This document shows positions 13,246 through 61,210 of a DNA stretch of 64,000 nt, one piece after another. The notes below the pieces were generated by a model. That model ran no database searches. It had not been told where the DNA came from and worked only from the letters and a program-made list of their open reading frames with translations. Each line of letters opens with the position of its first letter. Within the stretch, counting starts at the first letter, position 1. Source of the DNA: an uncultured Chloroflexia bacterium (lineage in GTDB: Bacteria > Chloroflexota > Limnocylindria > Limnocylindrales > CSP1-4); NCBI GenBank assembly GCA_963819655.1, contig CAWFXA010000001.1:448001-512000 (forward strand), given 5' to 3'. The position numbers and the translations under genes were made by a program.

Positions 13246-14774
13246 GCGCTCCCGGCACGACGATCCGTCCCGCGGGTCCGCCCCCAGCTCGACGCGCCCC
13301 GGCCGACCGCTCCGCGGTGGCGATGGCGCTGCTCATCGTCATGGGCTCGCTGGCCGCAGGGATCCTCGCGGCGGACGCGCCGCTACTGACGGTCGCGGGC
13401 GCCAGCGCGCTGCTGCTCGGGATCGCCATCGTCCTGCGACCGGACGTCGCGACGCTGACGACCATCGCGATCCTCTACACGAATGCGGCTGTGGTCGCCG
13501 TCCGGTTCCACGGCGTCCCTCTGTTCGTCGGGGCATTCGTGCCGGCCCTGCTCGTCGTGCCGCTGGCCCGCGATCTCGTCGTCCGTCGGCTGCCCGTCGT
13601 GGCGCCCCCGATGCTGGGCTGGATGGTCGTACTGCTGTTCATCCACGTGATCTCGGCGCTGTTCTCGAGCGACACCGTCGTGTCGTGGGATGCCGTCGTC
13701 ATCTTCGTCGTCGAGGGGTTCGGCCTGTATTTCCTGCTCATCAACGTCATCAGGACGCCGGAGATGCTGCGCTCGGTGACCTGGGTCCTCCTGATATCGG
13801 GCGCCCTGGTCAGCTTGTTGGCGATCCACCAGGTCGTGACGGAGAACTACGACAGCAACTATCTCGGTTTCGCACAGGCGGACTCGGCGATCCGCACAGG
13901 CGCCACCACGCTCGCCGGCGACGTCCTCCAACCCCGGATGGCCGGCCCGATCGGTGAGACGAACCGTTTCGCCCAGGTGATGCTCATGCTGGTGCCGTTG
14001 GGCCTCTTCCGCGCGATCGGTGAACGATCGACGTCGCTGCGGGTCATCGCCGGACTCATGACGCTGGCGATCACGCTCGGCGTCGTGCTGTCGTTCTCAC
14101 GGGGTGGGGCGGTGGGGCTGGCGGCGCTCGTGCTGGCGCTCATGGTGCTCAGGCTCGTCCGGGTGCGGCATGTGCTGGTGCTCGTGGTCGTGCTCGGACT
14201 CATCCTCGTGGCCCTTCCGCAGTACGCGAACCGGCTGACCTCCCTCGCCGACCAGGGCGGCTTCGGTGGCAGCACGTCGTCGGCAGTCACCGACACGTCG
14301 TTGCTCAGCCGCGCGACGGAGACGCTGGCGGCCGCGCTCGTGATCGTCGATCACCCCGTGCTCGGGGTCGGCCCCGACATGTTCCCCGTCTACTACGAGG
14401 AGTACGCCCAGGTCGTCGGGATCCTCATCCGGAACGATGCGGCCCGGGAGGCGCACAACCTCTATCTCGGCATCGGGGCCGAGCTGGGCATACCCGGGCT
14501 CATCGTGTTCCTCATCATCGCGGTGCTCACCATCCGGATGATCCTGGCCGCGCGACGCGCGAGCCTCATTCGACGCCCCGACCTCGAGCGCCTGACCACG
14601 CCGTATCTCCTTGCGCTGCTCACCTATTACGTGACGGGCCTGTTCCTGCACCTTTCCTTCGCCCGGTACTACTGGCTGATGCTGGCGGTGGCCGGTGCCG
14701 CGGCGATCATCACGCTCCGTGAGACCGCCGCGGACGAGGCCTCCGATCAGGGTGCCGTCAGCCAGTCCGTGTAG
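13242..14774 (+). CDS. O-antigen ligase / Wzy polymerase family
   Basis: Many TM helices; SFSRGG, HPVLGVG and AHNLYL...AELGIPG motifs. Confidence 0.87.
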   Translation: MSAPGTTIRPAGPPPARRAPADRSAVAMALLIVMGSLAAGILAADAPLLTVAGASALLLGIAIVLRPDVATLTTIAILYTNAAVVAVRFHGVPLFVGAFVPALLVVPLARDLVVRRLPVVAPPMLGWMVVLLFIHVISALFSSDTVVSWDAVVIFVVEGFGLYFLLINVIRTPEMLRSVTWVLLISGALVSLLAIHQVVTENYDSNYLGFAQADSAIRTGATTLAGDVLQPRMAGPIGETNRFAQVMLMLVPLGLFRAIGERSTSLRVIAGLMTLAITLGVVLSFSRGGAVGLAALVLALMVLRLVRVRHVLVLVVVLGLILVALPQYANRLTSLADQGGFGGSTSSAVTDTSLLSRATETLAAALVIVDHPVLGVGPDMFPVYYEEYAQVVGILIRNDAAREAHNLYLGIGAELGIPGLIVFLIIAVLTIRMILAARRASLIRRPDLERLTTPYLLALLTYYVTGLFLHLSFARYYWLMLAVAGAAAIITLRETAADEASDQGAVSQSV

Positions 14775-16561
14775 CCGAAGTTCTTGCCCGTCCGCGCGGG
14801 GGCGGGTCCGCGATACGCGGTGCCGTAGCGCCGGTCGATCAGCCAGGGTTGCCACTCGTCGTCGCCCTCGGCCACCCAGCCGGCACGTCCGTACAGGAAC
14901 CGGGTCGCGCGCAGCAGGGCGCGGTCCGACCAGTTCCAGGCGTCGTAGCCGGCAACGCGAAGCAGCTCTGCCTGGAGCACGGCACCCTGGAGGCCTTCCC
15001 AGGCGTACCCGGTCGGAGCCGGCGGCCAGGCGAACGTTCCGCCCCGCCGCATCTCCTCCGGCAAGGCGCCGCCGATGTCGATCCCGTTCTTCGTGCAGCC
15101 GGTCGGGTTGATGCCCACGGGCTTCGTGGGATCGCACTGCCAGGACAGATCGCCGTAGATGAAGCCGGCGTACGCGGCCCGGTCCCCGAGATAGCCGCGG
15201 AACACCTGGGCGGTCCGGGCCATCTCGGCCGAGTCGCCGAGGTACGCGGCGATCGCGGCACGCGCCGCCCCGGCGTGGGTGCCCCAGTTGTTCGGTCGTC
15301 GCTCATGCGTCTGACGCAGGGTCATGCCGTCGAGCGTCGTCGAGAGCAGTGCCCGGAGCCATGGCCGGAACGCCGCCGTATCGAACGCCGGGTCCAGCGT
15401 CCGGAGTGAGATCAGGTCGGCGGCGATCACATAGGCGGGGAGGTTGCGGCCCAATGCCAGGGTGCGGCCGCCGGATTCGGTGCCGAGCGCGGATCTCAGG
15501 CCGGCCAGCACGCTGGTGCGGTAGCTCGCGACGCCCGTCCGGGCATAGACAAGTGCCTTGGCGAGCACCACCTGGTCGGTGTTGTCGTCCTGGTTCGAGA
15601 TGTTCGGGGCCCCGAGCGCTGAGTCGGCACGGGCCTGCAGAGCTGTCCAGGCGGGACCGGAGGTCGGCAGGCGCCCGATCTCGGACGCCGACACGAGGAT
15701 GCCGCTCCCCGGCGCGACGACGAGCGGGCCCGACGGCGCGGTCGGCGTCGGCGATGGCGTAGGCGTCGGCGTCGGCACGGCGGTCGGCGTCGGCGTGGGG
15801 GTCGGGGTCGGCGACGCGGTCGGAGTCGCGGTCGCGGTCGGGGTGGGAGTCGGCGAGGCCGTCGGGGTCGGCGAGGCAGTCGGGGTCGGAGTCGCCGCCG
15901 CGGCAGGTGTCGGAGTCGCCGTCGGGGCGGCCGTCGGGGTCGCCGTCGGTGCCGGCGTCGGGCTGGCGGTCGGGGCCGCAGTCGGGGCAGCCGTCGGCAC
16001 TGGAGTCGCCGTCGGAGCCGCTGTCGGTGGCGCCGTCGGCGCAGGGGTCGGAGTGGGGACGGGCGTAACGCGTGGTTTCGCGCGTGGTGTCGCGACCGGC
16101 GTCGGCGCCGGGGTCGGATCCGGCTTCTTGGCCGGGGCGACGATCTCGACGGCCAGCAACCCGCGTTCGACACCCTGGTCGTCGACTGCCCGCAGCTCAT
16201 GCACACCGCGCTCGAGCGTCGGTGGCAGGCGAACCTTCACCGAGAACCGGCCTTTGGCGTTGGTGCGATAGGCGACCAGCTCCGTCCCGTCGGGCCACAC
16301 CAGGAGTCCCGTCTCAGCGCGGTCGAACCCGGTGCCGACGATGACGATGCGCTGACCCGGCGTCGGCGCGTCGGGCGTCACCGCCAGGGTCGGCGTCGCC
16401 GCGGCCGTCATCACGAACGGAAGGATGAGCGCAGGGATCAGCAGGATGATCGGCAGGGTCGCCAGGATGTCGCGATGCTTCGACCACCGGGACGGGGGCG
16501 GTGGTGGCTCCGGGTGCGAGAAGACCCAGTCCTTGCGATCGGCGATCCTGATGTTCCGCAC
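14747..16561 (-). CDS. Secreted or anchored alginate-lyase-like protein (paralog 1) with an Ig-like domain and Pro/Thr/Ala linker
   Basis: GGAGG RBS before the GTG; TM/signal segment; PT-rich linker; catalytic domain with NNWG and a C-terminal FGYTDWL shared with two neighbouring genes. Confidence 0.6.
   Translation of the reverse strand: MRNIRIADRKDWVFSHPEPPPPPSRWSKHRDILATLPIILLIPALILPFVMTAAATPTLAVTPDAPTPGQRIVIVGTGFDRAETGLLVWPDGTELVAYRTNAKGRFSVKVRLPPTLERGVHELRAVDDQGVERGLLAVEIVAPAKKPDPTPAPTPVATPRAKPRVTPVPTPTPAPTAPPTAAPTATPVPTAAPTAAPTASPTPAPTATPTAAPTATPTPAAAATPTPTASPTPTASPTPTPTATATPTASPTPTPTPTPTAVPTPTPTPSPTPTAPSGPLVVAPGSGILVSASEIGRLPTSGPAWTALQARADSALGAPNISNQDDNTDQVVLAKALVYARTGVASYRTSVLAGLRSALGTESGGRTLALGRNLPAYVIAADLISLRTLDPAFDTAAFRPWLRALLSTTLDGMTLRQTHERRPNNWGTHAGAARAAIAAYLGDSAEMARTAQVFRGYLGDRAAYAGFIYGDLSWQCDPTKPVGINPTGCTKNGIDIGGALPEEMRRGGTFAWPPAPTGYAWEGLQGAVLQAELLRVAGYDAWNWSDRALLRATRFLYGRAGWVAEGDDEWQPWLIDRRYGTAYRGPAPARTGKNFGYTDWLTAP
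15740..16125 (-). repeat. Low-complexity PT/PTA coding linker
   Basis: Degenerate 6-12 bp repeats encoding PTATP/PTPTP. Confidence 0.85.
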
Positions 16562-16653
16562 GACGTCCTCCCTGCTCCGCGACTGCGTAGGCGGGGAGCG
16601 TTGGACGCCAGCGCGACCAGGGAACGGGTCAGCGTCCCAAGGCGCGCTGCGAC

Positions 16654-16730
16654 TTCGGCAACCCGGCTACCTGGGATCCAGGCCCGTGGCTTTGCGGCCC
16701 CGCCTCGCGACGGGTGTGCCTGTTCGGTAT
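16654..16730 (-). ncRNA. c-di-GMP-I (GEMM) riboswitch upstream of lyase paralog 1
   Basis: Reverse complement reads GGCACACCCGTC-GCGA-GGCGGGGCCGCAAAGCCACGGGCCT...GGTAGCCGGGTTGCCGAA, with a GNRA-capped P2, GCAAAGC junction, P3 and 3' GGTTGCCG; about 90 nt before the start codon. Confidence 0.88.
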
Positions 16731-16961: not shown

Positions 16962-18305
16962 CTAGCTGCCGTACAGCCAGTCCGTGTAGCCGAAGACCCG
17001 CCCGATACCGGCCTGCTCGGTCGGGAGGTCGAGCCCGTAGCGTGCGTTGAGAAGCCACGGGACGTGGTGGCTCACAGCCGAGCGGTTCCAGGTCAGACCG
17101 CCCGCCTCGCCCGAGCGGGTGACGACATCGGCCGCCCGACGGATGGCCGAGTCGGACCACGTCCAGACGTCGCCATAGCCGTTGACCGTGAGCAGCTCGG
17201 CCTGGAACGAGAGCCCCTGCAGCGACTCGAGCGTGTAGCCGATGCCGTCCCGCCCGGGCGGCCATTTCCTGTTCCCGCCGCGGTCGATGTCGCGGACGAT
17301 CGCGCCATCGAGATCGATCCCGCCCTTCTCGCATGGCGGATTGACCGGCGTGTATCGCGACGGATCGCAGGCCCAGCTCGCCGCGCCTTCGACCGGCTGG
17401 AACCGATCCCATGCGGATCGATCACCGAGGAAGCCCTTCAGGACCTGCGCCGCACGCTGCACATCGTCCGTGTCACCGAGGTACAGGCTGGCGGCGATCC
17501 GCGAGGCGCCCGTGAACGAGCCCCAGTTGTTCGGAGCGTCCTCGTGCGTGGACACCAATGACGTCCAGCGCCCGTGACCGCCGAGCTCGCGCGTCCGGAT
17601 ATCGTCGAGCCAGGATCGGAAGCGCTCGTCGTCCGGGCCCGACAGCCCGACGAAGTCGGCTGCGAGGACGTACGCCCCGAGCTGGCGGCCAAGCGACAGG
17701 ATCGAGTTGTTGGCACCCGCCCGCTCGGTGCCGATGGCATCCATGATCTGGGCCGTCGCGCGCTCGCCATAGGCGGGGTCCCCCGTCCGCGCGAAGACGA
17801 GTGCCGCGGCCAGCGTCATCACGCCGTGGCGGTTGTCCTGATCGCGCAGGTCGGGTTCCCCGGGCGGCTCGTCGGCCCACGCGACCAACGACTCCCAGGC
17901 GAGACCGCTGGTGGGCAATGCCATGAAGTCGGCCTTCGACATGAGGAGATAGTCGCCTGGGGGCCGAGGCGATGGTGGTGGCGGCAGCGACACGCTGGGC
18001 GCGACGGATTCGGTCGCATCGGGGGACGCCCCGGAGGAGCCGGTCGGGCTCGGGACGACCGCGCTGGACGGGCTGGCGCCCCCTTCCGGCCCCGGCCGCA
18101 ACGGCAGCCAGCTCGACGCGATGAGGGCAGCGACGACGAGGACCGCCGCCGCGAGCAGGATCCGGAGTGGCCGTCGTGGCCGGCGGGGCGGCGTCGTGGG
18201 CGGGGCGGGGGGCTCCCCCGGCGGTCCGGACGCGGGCCCGGACGACGGCTCGGCTGGAGGCGTCTTGGGCGTCGGGATACGGATCGTCGGGCTGTCGTCG
18301 GCCAT
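16962..18305 (-). CDS. Membrane-anchored alginate-lyase-like protein (paralog 2)
   Basis: Pro-rich N-terminus and TM helix; LSLGRQLGAYVLAAD, THEDAPNNWG and FGYTDWL motifs. Confidence 0.6.
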   Translation of the reverse strand: MADDSPTIRIPTPKTPPAEPSSGPASGPPGEPPAPPTTPPRRPRRPLRILLAAAVLVVAALIASSWLPLRPGPEGGASPSSAVVPSPTGSSGASPDATESVAPSVSLPPPPSPRPPGDYLLMSKADFMALPTSGLAWESLVAWADEPPGEPDLRDQDNRHGVMTLAAALVFARTGDPAYGERATAQIMDAIGTERAGANNSILSLGRQLGAYVLAADFVGLSGPDDERFRSWLDDIRTRELGGHGRWTSLVSTHEDAPNNWGSFTGASRIAASLYLGDTDDVQRAAQVLKGFLGDRSAWDRFQPVEGAASWACDPSRYTPVNPPCEKGGIDLDGAIVRDIDRGGNRKWPPGRDGIGYTLESLQGLSFQAELLTVNGYGDVWTWSDSAIRRAADVVTRSGEAGGLTWNRSAVSHHVPWLLNARYGLDLPTEQAGIGRVFGYTDWLYGS

Positions 18306-56482: not shown

Positions 56483-56608
56483 GCGCGAGTCTAGTCACCC
56501 CCACGCCCGGCGATGGTCCCATCGCCACCCATACCTCCAGCGTGGTGCGTGGAGAGGCCACGTTGGATACAACAGGACGACGACCCTCGAGACCTAGGAC
56601 CGTGCCGT

Positions 56609-59297
56609 TTGCCGAGTTTCAACAGGGGCATCCGCAGCCATCGAGAGCCACAGGCAGGCACATCCGCTGACGCTCGCTCGCTCAGCACTGTGCCGCTGCG
56701 GCATGGTCTCGTCGCATCCGCGGAACGGATCCCCACGCACGTCCGCGTCTGGGCCCTGACCGCCTTCCTGGCGGCGCTGGCCGTCGTCGGTTACGCGGTC
56801 CTGCTGGTCGATCGTCCGGGCCGCGAGGTGCCGATCGCCATCCCGTGGCCGGTGATCGCATTCGGGTTCCTCGTCGCCGAGCTCAAGGTGGTGCAGGTCC
56901 ATTTCCGCCGCGAGACGCACGCGTTCTCGCTGAGCGAGTTCCCGGCGGTCATCGGCATGTTCTTCCTGCCGCCCGCGGAGTACCTCCTGGCTGTCCTCGT
57001 CGGATCGGCAGCCGCCTTCGTGCTCACCGGCTCGCGCCCCGTCAAGCTCGCGTTCAACCTCGCGAACTACGGGCTGATCGCGGTCATCTCGATGGCGATC
57101 CTCCTGTCGATCGCATCGCCGACCGGTCCGCCCGGCATCCGCGAGTGGGCCGCGGCCTTCACCGCGACCACGTTCGCGACGGTCCTCAGCTCGATCACGA
57201 TCGCCCTCGTCATCACCCTCTCGGGCGGCGCACCGCAATTCCAGAAGCTGCCCGAGATGATCCAGTTCGGGAGCATGGTCGCGCTGGCGAACACGAGTCT
57301 CGCGCTGCTCGCCGTCACGATCCTGTGGCTCCAGCCCATCATGCTGTGGCTTCTCGTGCTCCCGCTCGTGATGATCTTCGTCGCCTACCAGGCGTACATC
57401 TCCGAACGCGAGAAGCACGAACGGCTCGAGCTGCTCTACGAGTCCTCGCGGATCCTGCAGCTGTCGCCGGAGATCGATTTCACGCTCGTGGCGCTTCTCA
57501 GCCACGCCCGCACGATGTTCCGGGCGGAGCTCGCCGAGGTCATCCTCTACCCGCGATCACCGGACGCCGAGGGCCTGTGGGCGCGGTCGTGGCACGACCG
57601 GGACCCCGAGGTCTCCAGCCCCACCAGCGACGCCCTCCAGGACTCGCTCCACGATCTCGTCCGATCGTCGACCGGGCCGTTCATGCACGAGACCCGCGAT
57701 CCGGACGGACGCGTGCGACGGCACATGGTCAGCGCGCTGCGCGGCGAGTCGGACATCATCGGCTCGATGGTCATCACCAATCGGTTGACGGAGGGGACCT
57801 CGTTCGGGGACGACGATCTCCGGTTGCTGGAGACCCTCGCCAACCAGACGGCGGTCGCCCTCGAGAACGGCCACCTGGAGCAGTCGCTGGCCGAGCTCTC
57901 TCGCCTCAAGGAGCAGCTCCGCCACCAGGCCTACCACGACCCGCTCACCGGTCTGCCGAACCGGACCCTCTTCCTCGAATCGGTGGGTGAGCGGATCGGT
58001 TCGACCGGCCCCGAGATGCCGGTCGTCATGTTCCTTGACCTCGATGACTTCAAAGTCGTCAACGACACCCTCGGTCACGAGGCGGGGGATCGGCTGCTGT
58101 GTGATGTGGCGGGCCGTCTGCGGACGACCCTGCGGTCCGGGGATATCGCCGCCAGGCTCGGCGGCGACGAGTTCGCGATCCTGCTCGACGACGACCCGGG
58201 TCTTGCCCGAGCCGAAGCGGTCGCCGACCGGATCATCGACGCGCTCCGCGCGACGTTCCCGCTCGAAGGGCAGGAGATCACGATCGGGGTCAGCATCGGC
58301 ATCGCCGCGGCCCGATCGGGCATCAGCGCGGACGAACTGCTGCGCAACGCGGATGTCGCCATGTACACGGCGAAGGCCACCGGCAAGAACAGGGTCTCGG
58401 TCTTCGAGCCGACCGTCCATGCCGCGATCGTCGCCCGCCACGAGCTGAGCGCCGAGCTGTCGCGCAGCCTCGGTCGCGGCGAGCTCCACGTCTTCTACCA
58501 GCCGATCGTGGAGTTGGCGACCCGTCGCGTGACCGGGGTCGAGGCATTGATCCGCTGGCAGCATCCGGTCCGCGGCCTGATCGGCCCGAGCGAGTTCGTG
58601 CACCTCGCCGAGGAGACGCGCCTGATCCGGCCGCTCGGTCGCTGGGTCCTGCTCGAGGCCTGCCGCCAGGCCGCCGACTGGGCCGCGGTCATCCCGGGCG
58701 GCGACGACCTGACGATGTCGGTCAACCTGTCCGCGCAACAGCTCCAGGAGCCCGACTTCGTCAACGACCTCCGCCAGATCATCGCCGACACCGGCATCCG
58801 CCCCCACCAGCTCGTCCTCGAGATGACCGAGACGGTCATGTTCCACGACACGCTGACGACCCTGTCCCGGCTTGCAGCCATCCGCGACCTGGGCGTGCGC
58901 ATCGCGATCGACGACTTCGGGACCGGCTACTCGTCGCTCGGCTACCTCCGCCGCTTCCGGGTCGACATCCTCAAGATCGCGCGCGACTTCATCGGACCGG
59001 CAGAGCGCGAAGAGGAGTGGGCGTTCGCGAGCGCGATCGTCGCGATCGGTCGATCACTCGGAGTGACGATGGTCGCCGAGGGCATCGAGGAGACCGGTCA
59101 GCTCGATCGGCTGCTCGCGCTGGGGTGCGAGCTTGGCCAGGGATACCTGTTCGCCCGCGCCAGCTCGGGCCGAGGACATCGGCGCGCTGCTCGGCGTCGA
59201 GCCGGCGGCGAGTCGCGCGACCGGGGAGCGGGCCGCCAAGGGCGGAACAGTGGCGTCGTCGGGCCGGCGACGGACCATGGCCATCGATCCGACCTAG
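56609..59297 (+). CDS. Polytopic membrane sensor - GAF - GGDEF - EAL protein; apparent frameshift near 59158, true stop probably TAG 59295-59297
   Basis: About 7-8 hydrophobic helices; GAF end F..DDLRLLETLANQ; HDPLTGLPNR, RLGGDEF, EALIRW, DDFGTGYSSL and GQGYLF motifs; shifted frame continues ARAEDIGALL. Start codon approximate. Confidence 0.88.
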
Positions 59298-59318
59298 GCC
59301 TGGGTTACCGAAGCCATC

Positions 59319-59915
59319 ATGTTCATCCTGTACGCGCTCGTGATCGGCGTCGGGGTCGGGCTCGCCCTCGGTGGGCGCCCCGCAGGGCTCGGCAGCCTGC
59401 GGTTCCGCTGGTCGGGCGTGATGCTCGCCGGGCTGCTCGTCCAGGTCGTGCTGTTCTCCGACGCGGTCGCGGGACGCATCGGCGCGCTCGGACCGCCGAT
59501 CTACGTGGCGTCGACCGTGTTGGTGCTCGCCGCAGTCGTCGCCAACCGCTCCATCCCGGGCATGGCCATCGTCGCGCTGGGCGCAGTGAGCAACCTTGCC
59601 GCGATCGTCGCCAACGGCGGGTACATGCCGGCGGCCCGATCCGCCCTGGACGCCCTCGGCAAGACCGATCCGACGACGTATTCCAACAGTGCGACCGTCG
59701 AGCATCCGGCCCTCGGGCCGCTGACGGACATCTTCGCGATGCCCTCGTGGCTGCCCTTCGCGAACGTGTTCAGCGTCGGCGATATCCTCATCGTCGCCGG
59801 TGTCGTGACGACGATCGTCCTGGCGATGCGGAGCCCCGCGCAGGACGGCGAAATGGGCAGGGGTGCCCCCGAGCAACTCCCCCATCCAGCCGACCTCGCC
59901 AGTACGGTCGAGTGA
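59319..59915 (+). CDS. DUF5317-like membrane protein, putative intramembrane peptidase
   Basis: LGGR...L.FRW, SNLAAIVANGGYMP, L.PLTDIF and NVFSVGDILI motifs recalled as DUF5317; about 5-6 TM helices. Confidence 0.8.
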   Translation: MFILYALVIGVGVGLALGGRPAGLGSLRFRWSGVMLAGLLVQVVLFSDAVAGRIGALGPPIYVASTVLVLAAVVANRSIPGMAIVALGAVSNLAAIVANGGYMPAARSALDALGKTDPTTYSNSATVEHPALGPLTDIFAMPSWLPFANVFSVGDILIVAGVVTTIVLAMRSPAQDGEMGRGAPEQLPHPADLASTVE

Positions 59916-59975
59916 CTGGTCCCGCGTCCTCGCCGGCCGCACCATCCCGAACGAGGGACGCTCGTCCCCCCGCTA

Positions 59976-60057
59976 ACCGGATCGTCCAGGGCAAACCCGT
60001 CGCGAGGCGGGGACGCAAAGCCAGGGATCTCTCATTCGAGACCGCCCGGCTGCCGGT
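59976..60057 (+). ncRNA. c-di-GMP-I (GEMM) riboswitch
   Basis: GGGCAAACCCGTC-GCGA-GGCGGGGACGCAAAGCCAGGGATCTC...GAGACCGCCCGGCTGCCGG matches the canonical GEMM-I pattern. Confidence 0.92.
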
Positions 60058-60095
60058 CCTGCGAGCGTCGACCCTTCGCTGAAGAAGGAGAACGC

Positions 60096-60185
60096 GTGAA
60101 GGCGAACCTGGCGCGCTTCACCTGGGCACTCACGCTCCTGGCCAGCATGGCCCTGACCGTGGGAGCCGGGATCCGGTGGAACTGA
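60096..60185 (+). CDS. 29-aa peptide MKANLARFTWALTLLASMALTVGAGIRWN (not in ORF track)
   Basis: AAGGAG at 60085-60090, 5 nt before the GTG; directly after the riboswitch; basic N-terminus plus hydrophobic core. Confidence 0.8.
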   Translation: MKANLARFTWALTLLASMALTVGAGIRWN

Positions 60186-60187
60186 CC

Positions 60188-60283
60188 GTGGCGGCATACG
60201 TCGCGGCCTCGACCGACCGGGTCCAGTCGACGACCGGGTACCACCCCGAGATCGTCATCGAGTCCGGGCACCGCTGGGGCTGA
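60188..60283 (+). CDS. 31-aa peptide MAAYVAASTDRVQSTTGYHPEIVIESGHRWG (not in ORF track)
   Basis: GTG starts 2 nt after the stop of peptide 1; GC3-rich codons; shares the terminal G-x-R-W-x motif. Confidence 0.6.
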   Translation: MAAYVAASTDRVQSTTGYHPEIVIESGHRWG

Positions 60284-60427
60284 GTTCCAGCGAGCCGATC
60301 TCATCGAGGGGCGCCGGCCACGCCGGCGCCCCTCGTACGTGTCCGGGATGGGCGCCTGGCCTCCGGAACGGGGATCCTGGACCCACTCGTGCATGGTGCT
60401 ACTCTTGTGTGCATGGGAGGACCGCGC

Positions 60428-61210
60428 ATGACGGTTCCCTGGGTGGATGCCCCCCCGGAAGACGCTCGCCGCGCTCTTGTGCTCCATGATCGCCCAGCGG
60501 TCGTGGACCTCATCGAGCTGACGCTGAACCACGGTCTCTTCGTGGTCCGAGCCGCGCAGACCCTGACCGAGGCGATGGATCTCCTCGCGACGTGGCACCC
60601 GCATATGGCCGTCGTCGACATGGATCACGACGAGAGTGCCGACTTGCTCAAGCGCCTGGGCGCCTCCAATAACCTGGCGGCGAGCGGCACGCCCGTCCTC
60701 GGCCTCACGCGCCGCGGCGATCTGCGGAACAAGCTCAAGGCATTCGACCTCGGGGTGGACGACATCCTGGCGATGCCGTTCTCACCGGAAGAGTTGTTGG
60801 CCCGGTCGATCGTGATCACGCGTCGGGCTTCGGGGGTCGACCGACCGATCGTCCCCACGATCAGACTCGGCGAGATGGAGATCGACATCGTCAATCGTGT
60901 GGTCCGTGCGGGCTCTTCCGTGATCCACCTGAGCTCCATCGAGCAGAGCCTGTTGTACCTGCTTGCCAGCCGGGGTGGTCGGGTGATCTCCCGGGACGAG
61001 ATCCTGGACGGCGTCTGGGGCACCGACTTCGTGGCCGAGAGCAACATCGTCGATCGCCATATCCGGAGCCTGCGGATCAAGCTGCAGAACGACTACCGCC
61101 ACCCGCGCTTCATCGAGACGGTCCCGGGCAAGGGCTATCGGTTCATCCCGACATTCTCGAACCAGGGCTGGGACGGTGGGTCCGGCGCGGCCGAGGATCC
61201 GCCCGACTGA
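60428..61210 (+). CDS. OmpR-family response regulator (no adjacent kinase)
   Basis: GGAGG RBS; VVDMD, GVDD...PFSPEELLAR, VDRHIRSLR.KL and IETVPGKGYRF motifs. Confidence 0.9.
   Translation: MTVPWVDAPPEDARRALVLHDRPAVVDLIELTLNHGLFVVRAAQTLTEAMDLLATWHPHMAVVDMDHDESADLLKRLGASNNLAASGTPVLGLTRRGDLRNKLKAFDLGVDDILAMPFSPEELLARSIVITRRASGVDRPIVPTIRLGEMEIDIVNRVVRAGSSVIHLSSIEQSLLYLLASRGGRVISRDEILDGVWGTDFVAESNIVDRHIRSLRIKLQNDYRHPRFIETVPGKGYRFIPTFSNQGWDGGSGAAEDPPD

Follow-up and report, generated by a model that had tools for sequence, protein, structure and literature searches.

Sequence evidence for a riboswitch-linked pair of micro-protein genes with a common C-terminal tail in soil Chloroflexota

Introduction

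The locus examined here raises the question of whether two very short open reading frames (ORFs), arranged in tandem behind a riboswitch for cyclic diguanosine monophosphate (c-di-GMP), are genuine genes and, if so, what purpose is served by the C-terminal sequence that they share. The frames, referred to as ORF1 and ORF2, lie within a stretch of 64,000 nucleotides (nt) from an uncultured member of the Chloroflexota, the whole of which is referred to as the window; the window is approximately 70% GC, and coordinates are positions within it. An original prediction, prepared from the DNA letters in isolation, had interpreted the two frames as a membrane-routed precursor plus a second variant, from which cleavage close to the Gly of a common [AS]-G-x-R-W motif would release a very short Trp-containing peptide. 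Both ORFs were found where that prediction had placed them, with the same peptide ends, ribosome binding site and TGA-CC-GTG junction, and the riboswitch that it had assumed upstream proved to be a full-length c-di-GMP-I-GGC aptamer (RF03167, 65.8 bits).

Comparison with related loci confirms that ORF1 and ORF2 are genuine genes, conserved within a lineage of soil Chloroflexota and coding for protein; both are under purifying selection that operates at the level of the protein as opposed to the RNA. In each, constraint is strongest over the C-terminal tail, which takes the form G-A-G-x-R/K-W in ORF1 and A/S-G-H/Q/R-R-W in ORF2.

Results

Organisation of the unit

The region between positions 59981 and 60334 is a small stand-alone expression unit comprising a riboswitch, two coupled micro-protein genes and a terminator hairpin, with the following elements.

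59981..60058, plus strand: c-di-GMP-I (GGC variant) aptamer (RF03167, 65.8 bits, E 1.2e-14).
60059..60122, plus strand: expression platform, comprising a variable linker, a hairpin between anti-Shine-Dalgarno and Shine-Dalgarno (SD) sequences (CCTTC...GAAGG), the SD sequence GAAGGAG and a start-codon hairpin (ORF1 codons 1-9).
60096..60185, plus strand: ORF1, GTG to TGA, 29 amino acids (aa), MKANLARFTWALTLLASMALTVGAGIRWN, with GAAGGAG ahead of the start.
60188..60283, plus strand: ORF2, GTG to TGA, 31 aa, ending IVIESGHRWG.
60306..60334, plus strand: GC-rich hairpin read from the sequence, with a 13-bp stem (GAGGGGCGCCGGC / GCCGGCGCCCCTC) and the loop CAC; the likely end of the transcript.

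ORF1 begins 37 bases past the end of the aptamer, and ORF2 begins 2 nt past the ORF1 stop codon, the junction reading TGA-CC-GTG. An alternative in-frame GTG for ORF2 is present at 60176; relatives carry ATG at the position equivalent to 60188. When all six frames of the entire 3.49-Mb genome were searched, 43 of 94,544 stop-terminated frames were found to end in [AS]G.[RK]W.{0,2}, and the only same-strand pair among those 43 with a spacing of 20-150 nt was the ORF1/ORF2 locus.

Selection acting on ORF1

Loci fetched via the micro-ORF peptide and loci fetched via the neighbouring DUF5317 gene were pooled to give 118 non-redundant units from one Chloroflexota family and its sister family. The ORF1 product consists of a basic N-terminus, a hydrophobic helix and the tail G-A-G-I-R-W-N, with the family consensus MKANLARFTxALxLLASMALTLGAGxRWx. 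Gly25 is kept in 114/118 units, as is Trp28 in register (114/118), and ORF1 as a whole is near-invariant. Ratios of nonsynonymous to synonymous substitution (dN/dS, or omega; pooled Nei-Gojobori) were 0.11 for codons 23-28 and 0.45 for codons 10-22, with values of 0.96 and 3.5 for the other two frames of the same DNA. Positional entropy was 0.98 at third positions versus 0.66 at first and 0.34 at second positions, and from codon 10 onwards variation falls at third positions. Indeed, four codons each are in use for G23, A24 and G25, while position 27 employs six, encoding Arg (CGG, CGC, CGT, AGG, AGA) or Lys (AAG).

Position 22 is occupied by Leu, Val or Ile (44, 19 and 6 sequences, respectively) and position 24 by Ala in 70/71. 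The residue that follows Gly25 is I, M, V, L, Y, F, T or W, and never Cys, and between 0 and 12 residues follow the Trp. The hydrophobicity of the core is maintained among relatives. In one related locus (L004) the tail itself is internally duplicated (GAGIKWLGVAGIKWL).

Selection acting on ORF2

A coupled ORF2 ending in [AS]-G-[HQRL]-R-W plus 0-6 residues is present in 101 of the 118 units; in six others the RW of the tail is retained behind a different residue, and 11 have no ORF2. Spacings of 2 nt (41 units), 4 nt (12) and 5 nt (eight) separate the ORF1 stop from the ORF2 start, and in a further 26 units the two overlap by 4 nt (-4). Over the five codons of the ORF2 tail dN/dS was 0.12, with the four Gly codons used about evenly and His encoded by CAC and CAT. 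Relative to the Trp (n = 101), position -6 is I, L, V or P, position -4 is Ala in 78 and Ser in 21 sequences, and position -3 is Gly in 100; the residue after this Gly is H, Q, R or L, and again never Cys. Frame and tail are kept while the length of ORF2 ranges from 9 to 36 codons across the units.

Two classes of ORF2 can be distinguished. In 45 units the product is transmembrane (TM)-like, as in MKAVLRSQAFRILFALAALSSSALVVEAGHRW, and is matched by the ORF1 profile at positions 10-28, which shows that ORF1 and ORF2 are diverged duplicates. The other 56 of the 101, including that of the window, have no hydrophobic segment and may be as short as 9-10 codons, with a tail omega of 0.10 at a synonymous divergence (dS) of 0.89. 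The maximum 15-residue hydropathy of the window ORF2 is 0.11. Across the six sequences of its sub-clade, omega is 0.80 for the N-terminal two-thirds and 0.43 for the last 10 codons; all six share the reading frame, the sequence ESGHRWG and a span of 30-31 codons. The window ORF2 is a degenerate paralogue of ORF1, in which the hydrophobic part has been lost and the tail kept, and since the tail is constrained while the N-terminal part drifts, it is the tail that matters in ORF2.

These data bear upon several elements of the original prediction. The signal peptide- or TM-like body that it ascribed to ORF1 and the hydrophilic character that it ascribed to ORF2 were both borne out for the window, whereas the supposedly unrelated N-termini hold only within the window's sub-clade, ORF2 being a recognisable TM paralogue of ORF1 in other genera. 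The suggested coupling is seen across the family, with starts 2 nt from the ORF1 stop in 41 units and overlapping it by 4 nt in 26. The proposal was to fall if relatives lacked ORF2 or had lost GxRW, and a tailed, coupled ORF2 was found in 101/118 units. Likewise, the dN/dS analysis that had been advised returned values of 0.11 and 0.12 for the ORF1 and ORF2 tails, respectively.

The ORF2 Arg codon that precedes the Trp (window 60272-60277) is CGC in 62/64 units versus a genome usage of 40%, with neighbouring codons varying freely. A hairpin that might account for the fixed CGC-TGG was not apparent, a downstream complement being present in 5/100 units versus 11/100 in a control window. The equivalent Arg/Lys codon in ORF1 is preferentially CGG or AAG, which places an SD-like element (GGTGG/AGTGG) 8 nt ahead of the point at which ORF2 starts.

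Presence in RNA-derived contigs

Metatranscriptome libraries from three studies yielded contigs that show 0-2 differences from the window over the aptamer, ORF1 and ORF2. Two of these span aptamer and ORF1 (59994-60124 and 60002-60140), one extends from the aptamer to ORF2 (60031-60215) and another runs from ORF1 to ORF2 across the junction (60109-60260), in agreement with a single RNA that carries both ORFs. No contig identical to the window across the DUF5317 gene was present in libraries X15-X17, although such lack of cover does not constitute evidence.

Riboswitch, expression platform and terminator

The aptamer in the window matches model positions 1-80 of 80 with 65.8 bits versus a gathering score of 59 (cmscan); that c-di-GMP is the ligand of the GGC variant follows Rfam's naming. 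Matches to clan CL00126 above gathering precede 23/23 units at the 20/20 related loci tested (17 RF03167 and six RF01051), and compensatory pairs occur in P1 and P2 of the aptamer among related leaders. RNAalifold analysis of 56 leaders recovered the aptamer helices only, the linker being too variable for alignment. By alignment, the linker nevertheless stays complementary to the local SD sequence while varying among relatives.

Codons 1-9 of ORF1 are near-invariant even at third or synonymous positions, with dS at 0.27 versus 0.8-1.07 further on. The hairpin formed by these codons buries the start codon, which is paired in ∼90% of 69 minimum free energy (MFE) folds. Together, the frozen codons, the start-burying hairpin and the retained SD pairing indicate that the beginning of ORF1 belongs to the expression platform, and the region 60096-60122 resembles a dual-coding segment that specifies both a peptide N-terminus and part of a riboswitch platform. 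Because the SD sequence and start codon lie within conserved hairpins, control is probably exerted at translation. In variants that read KSTLARLS (L008 and L013) both arms of the start-codon hairpin seem, by eye, to change together.

No terminator was found in a T-run scan of 59700-60700; the hairpin at 60306-60334 was missed by this simple scan because it has no U-tract. A hairpin with a folding free energy of -15 kcal/mol or lower follows ORF2 in 85/100 related units, 23 of which have at least four T in the next 10 nt.

A second c-di-GMP-I-GGC aptamer is located elsewhere in the window, at 16653-16729 on the minus strand (64.6 bits), and precedes a gene at 14747-16561 (minus strand). The product of the latter, a secreted-looking protein of 604 aa that combines an alginate-lyase domain with a linker rich in Pro and Thr, is a typical matrix-related riboswitch target, and a paralogue adjoins it at 16962-18305 (minus strand). 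Alginate-lyase genes are also found beside the micro-ORF unit in three relatives (L106, L117 and L149).

Distribution and database status

DNA matching 59940-60345 is present, over the aptamer and ORF1, in 31/36 genomes of the same genus. An ORF1 profile detected the gene in 60/200 genomes and 24/49 genera of family f1. In a search of the order, it was detected in 81/258 genomes of f1 and in 0/42 genomes of f2, a family of small genomes; the family (60/200) and order (81/258) tallies each count one unpublished genome, G140, from which no sequence was taken. In a phylum-wide sample ORF1 was present in 7/401 genomes, these being the window's own, 4/23 of f1 and 2/16 of the sister family, f3. Whole units (aptamer, ORF1 and ORF2) are duplicated in tandem at nine loci (L060, L006, L011, L017, L044, L066, L116, L129 and L154), with 2-3 copies spaced ∼500-600 nt apart and the maximum of three in L060.

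Neither micro-peptide matched a Pfam or NCBIfam family at E <= 1. When a natural 40-aa homologue was used to query a set of 5.8 billion proteins, the homologues retrieved were 29-aa entries labelled 'hypothetical protein' with no Pfam domain. A profile hidden Markov model search of a 1.84-billion-protein set returned 134 clusters, all of which represent the family itself except for two tandem-repeat proteins (P0126 and P0203) with no relationship to it, and no informative fusions were present among these clusters. Many of the public gene calls (P0075-P0207) are 60-110 aa in length, having been started upstream and read in frame through the aptamer, such that the genuine gene of 29 aa is concealed as the C-terminal end of a spurious protein. 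In the ESM Atlas, a 35-aa homologue of ORF1 (L108) had look-alikes that scored 0.82 at best, under the guide value of 0.9.

Neighbouring genes

Two genes for membrane proteins lie ahead of the unit.

56513..59297, plus strand: membrane GAF-GGDEF-EAL gene of the c-di-GMP synthase/phosphodiesterase type (Pfam: EAL 6e-72, GGDEF 4e-44, GAF_3 7e-9).
59319..59915, plus strand: DUF5317 membrane-protein gene, 198 aa (PF17248, 3.2e-26), directly upstream of the riboswitch.

Of the 65 loci fetched via micro-ORF or DNA searches, 53 have a DUF5317 gene ∼700 nt ahead of ORF1 and on its strand, and in most related loci the DUF5317 gene is preceded, again on the same strand, by a GGDEF-EAL gene. Sampling in the reverse direction revealed ORF1 downstream in 60/80 loci fetched via DUF5317. 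The present genome has three DUF5317 paralogues, and only the copy at 59319-59915 is followed by micro-ORFs; the other two are located at C2:602863-603309 (L087) and C1:612033-612455 (L085) of assembly G000. One of these two occurs in an open frame with a major facilitator superfamily (MFS) transporter and adjoins an HD_5 gene of the HD-GYP, or phosphodiesterase, type.

Relative to its closest relative (L069), the GGDEF-EAL gene of the window has a 1-nt insertion just past ...GQGYLFAR (window 59160-59300), with the consequence that the last ∼45 codons are out of frame. The shifted frame remains open until 60082, through the DUF5317 gene and the riboswitch, whereas 34 other loci have a stop just before DUF5317; the end coordinate listed above, 59297, is the stop of the tail as read in the relatives' frame (ORF 59133-59297). 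The disruption reflects either a genuine frameshift or a mistake in the assembly.

Genes downstream of the unit vary. Those in the window encode a response regulator, PadR and SnoaL, with no gene for a thiamine pyrophosphate (TPP)-dependent enzyme. The response regulator was considered as a conserved downstream partner and rejected, being present in only 2/65 loci. The commonest downstream gene, which encodes a TPP-dependent enzyme (27/57 loci), looks like a case of plain synteny. It has an acetolactate synthase-like domain order (L090-L164) and lies on the same strand beyond the terminator, ∼0.6-0.9 kb from ORF1, with a spacer of several hundred unexplained bases ahead of it. No gene for a receptor or peptide transporter is conserved near the unit in related loci.

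The DUF5317 protein and co-variation with the tails

An AlphaFold2 model of the DUF5317 protein (predicted local distance difference test score, pLDDT, of 88) is a helical membrane bundle. A match to the Pfam family Peptidase_A8 was marginal (E 0.0099; 16.5 bits versus a cut-off of 25 bits). A search of PDB sequences returned 0 matches, hhalign gave probabilities of 1.9% against the LspA of the genome itself and 0.9% against a 30-sequence LspA profile, and Foldseek returned nothing at E <= 0.001 for the model. VIA-align listed 5dir_A (Z 5.0, root mean square deviation 3.4 over 94 residues) and 6ryp_A (Z 5.0), both of which we take to be LspA chains, at values within the tool's stated noise for helical bundles; their identities to DUF5317, 19% and 17%, were the highest in the list. 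With low profile-profile probabilities, null PDB-sequence and Foldseek searches and VIA-align at noise level, homology to LspA is not claimed, and the resemblance is retained as a lead alone; the genome encodes a true LspA of its own. Predicted complexes of the 29-aa ORF1 product with DUF5317 scored 0.30 and 0.23 versus a mark of 0.32, in runs made without controls, and carry no weight in either direction.

Gly25 of ORF1 is replaced by Trp (GAWMRW) in 3/118 units (L112, L131 and L162), and a Trp at the equivalent ORF2 position (ESWHRW) is seen in the same three units and in no others. The DUF5317 proteins of the same three loci carry an Ile96-to-Val substitution in the most conserved loop, SNLAAIVANGG, the residue being Ile in all 77 others. 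Co-variation of this sort would be expected if one partner reads both tails, and provides only a hint that this is the case.

Discussion

A c-di-GMP-controlled module of two micro-proteins, in which the RW tail is functional and which probably acts with the neighbouring membrane c-di-GMP machinery, is the interpretation favoured here, our confidence in it being evenly balanced. The ORF1 product would be a single-pass membrane micro-protein, with Lys2 and Arg7 on the cytoplasmic side, a helix of ∼18 residues, and the tail at the outer face of the membrane. ORF2 would have begun as a second membrane peptide that lost its helix in the window's lineage, the tail being kept, and would now serve as a co-produced carrier of the tail. 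The riboswitch would set the amount of both peptides according to the level of c-di-GMP, probably at translation, and the tail would act as a recognition element for one common partner. The likeliest candidates are the products of the conserved upstream genes, namely the membrane protein DUF5317, the membrane GAF-GGDEF-EAL enzyme or both, and the module would then feed back on c-di-GMP turnover, in the manner of other small membrane proteins that modulate membrane sensors.

Several observations weigh against this interpretation. Association with DUF5317 is incomplete in both directions: the gene is found without micro-ORFs in two of the three paralogues of this genome and in 20/80 sampled loci, and 12/65 micro-ORF loci have no DUF5317 within the 1.5 kb examined, some of these being second tandem copies or contig ends. 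With 56/101 ORF2s devoid of a hydrophobic segment, a partner site at the membrane face that is common to both products is hard to picture. The carriers of the Gly-to-Trp change are two metagenome-assembled genomes of a single lineage, and hence represent one or two evolutionary events. The metatranscriptome contigs reveal neither ends nor strand, and could derive from DNA carry-over. Finally, MFE folds calculated with and without the aptamer do not separate ligand-bound and free states (SD pairing of 0.61 versus 0.62), and give no sign as to whether the switch is ON or OFF.

A more elaborate scheme, to which we attach a low probability, is that the RW tails are substrates or ligands of DUF5317, the latter being a distantly LspA-like membrane protein that processes or senses peptides, in a closed loop that tunes the GAF-GGDEF-EAL enzyme. 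c-di-GMP would act via the riboswitch on production of the micro-peptides, and DUF5317 would act in turn on membrane-anchored ORF1 and soluble ORF2. It might cut them after Ala-Gly, with release of G-x-R-W peptides, or it might itself be gated by the tails. If correct, the scheme would give a c-di-GMP riboswitch a peptide-based output or feedback arm for the first time, and would provide DUF5317 with a function.

It is possible, though unlikely, that the micro-ORFs encode an exported precursor, as the original prediction had it, which is cut after [LIV]-x-[AS] and before G-x-R-W(-x) to release a c-di-GMP-dependent signal akin to Phr or ComS; ORF1 and the TM-type ORF2s would in effect be signal peptides with a cargo of 4-6 residues. 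The basic n-region and hydrophobic h-region of ORF1, with small residues ahead of the tail, are in keeping with this idea, as is the residue pattern (aliphatic at -3, Ala/Ser at -1 and Gly at +1), which fits signal peptidase, and the strongest constraint falls exactly at and past the putative cut. However, pheromones usually diversify, whereas the putative mature GxRW is near-invariant over 24 or more genera, the 56/101 ORF2s that have no export segment nevertheless maintain a tail omega of 0.10, 0 to 12 varying residues follow the Trp, and neither a receptor nor a peptide-transporter gene is conserved nearby. Constraint concentrated in the last 5-6 codons of both ORFs, even in ORF2s of 9-10 codons, could alternatively reflect a nascent peptide that acts in cis, with G-x-R-W near the stop codons stalling the ribosome to control ORF2 initiation, mRNA stability or terminator read-through, and with the released peptides functionless. 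The bias towards CGC at the ORF2 Arg (62/64 versus 40% genome usage) and the location of ORF1 codons 1-9 within an RNA structure would suit such a mechanism, which is rendered improbable by the variable distances from Trp to stop (0-12 codons in ORF1 and 0-6 in ORF2) and from the ORF2 stop to the hairpin (1 to 67 nt), by selection on the ORF1 hydrophobic core itself (omega 0.45), by the absence of a conserved downstream gene, and by the frequency of downstream complements to CGCTGG (5/100 versus 11/100 in the control).

The remaining alternatives deny a protein function to one or both of the frames. Conceivably, only ORF1 is functional in this genome, the window ORF2 being a decaying remnant of a TM paralogue in which the tail has yet to erode, and which is still open since stop codons are rare in DNA of 70% GC. 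The near-neutral N-terminal part in the window's sub-clade (omega 0.80, six sequences), the missing hydrophobic segment (maximum 15-residue hydropathy of 0.11) and the complete loss of ORF2 from 11/118 units all fit with decay. A tail omega of 0.10 at a dS of 0.89 over the 56 non-TM ORF2s speaks instead of long-term maintenance as opposed to recent decay, the coupled start position is maintained, and six out of six sub-clade members keep the frame, the 30-31 codons and ESGHRWG, such that we consider the remnant explanation distinctly unlikely. That conservation is due entirely to RNA, in the guise of an extended riboswitch platform or a small RNA with neither ORF translated, is strongly disfavoured and verges on the negligible. 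Synonymous sites are indeed constrained in ORF1 codons 1-9, and the unit has the form of a short stand-alone transcript with a hairpin end. Past codon 9, however, it is the third positions that vary, Gly and Ala each drawing on all four of their codons, the R-to-K exchange needs two substitutions (CGG to AAG), the off-frames have omega values of 0.96 and 3.5, and ORF2 varies from 9 to 36 codons with frame and tail kept. Going by these substitution patterns, the RNA-only explanation can be excluded for everything beyond codon 9 of ORF1.

The micro-protein family is invisible to standard annotation, yet it ranks with the best-conserved sequences that the locus has in this family of uncultured soil Chloroflexota. 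As such, it could serve as a test case for the coupling of second-messenger sensing to small membrane proteins, for the role of DUF5317, which is a membrane domain of wide occurrence with links to c-di-GMP enzymes, and for strong selection on a five-residue C-terminal motif in peptides of as few as nine residues.

Comparison with known systems

c-di-GMP riboswitches control adhesins, pili, enzymes and regulators. In common with other targets of c-di-GMP-I (GEMM-I; RF01051/RF03167) riboswitches, the unit has a full-length aptamer, scoring above gathering, directly 5' of an ORF, but it differs in that the regulated product is a stand-alone pair of genes of 29 and 31 codons followed by a terminator. 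At the level of abstracts, we found no c-di-GMP riboswitch target of this kind in the literature, although gene-association tables for the GGC variant could bear on the matter; nothing relevant was found at that level on the GGC variant, DUF5317 or c-di-GMP in Limnocylindr*.

Phr, ComS/XIP and SHP peptides are derived from exported signalling precursors of Gram-positive bacteria, and some ComS peptides have aromatic or Trp-containing C-termini. Very short precursors in which the active part comprises the last few C-terminal residues are a shared feature. The micro-ORFs differ in that their surroundings hold no conserved RRNPP-type receptor, Opp system or dedicated exporter, the tail is invariant across genera instead of diversifying, and half of the ORF2s have no export segment. 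TnaC, SecM, MifM and SpeFL are regulatory arrest or leader peptides, which the micro-ORFs resemble as short ORFs in a leader region with conservation near the C-terminus and adjacent RNA structure; they depart from the characteristics of arrest peptides in the variable spacing between motif and stop and the unconserved downstream gene. Moreover, with its 29 residues the ORF1 product would not yet have emerged from the ribosome tunnel when translation terminates, and hence could not act as a force sensor. With respect to lipoprotein signal peptides and LspA, the L-[AS]-G that precedes the cut position resembles a lipobox, but the residue after the Gly is H, Q, R, I, M or V in place of the Cys of a true lipobox.

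Parallels may also be drawn with MgrB and PmrR, small single-pass membrane proteins that modulate the membrane sensor PhoQ and the enzyme LpxT, respectively. The similarities extend to a size of ∼30 aa, a single hydrophobic helix, a basic N-terminus, a short juxta-membrane motif and linkage to a signalling system. The micro-ORFs are set apart by the presence of two coupled paralogues, one of which is often helix-less, by riboswitch control, by a lack of similarity to described families in Pfam and NCBIfam, and by a partner that is as yet a proposal. Riboswitch-regulated genes and small membrane proteins are each known; as far as our searches show, the micro-protein family is undescribed and tied to c-di-GMP signalling genes, and the combination is new.

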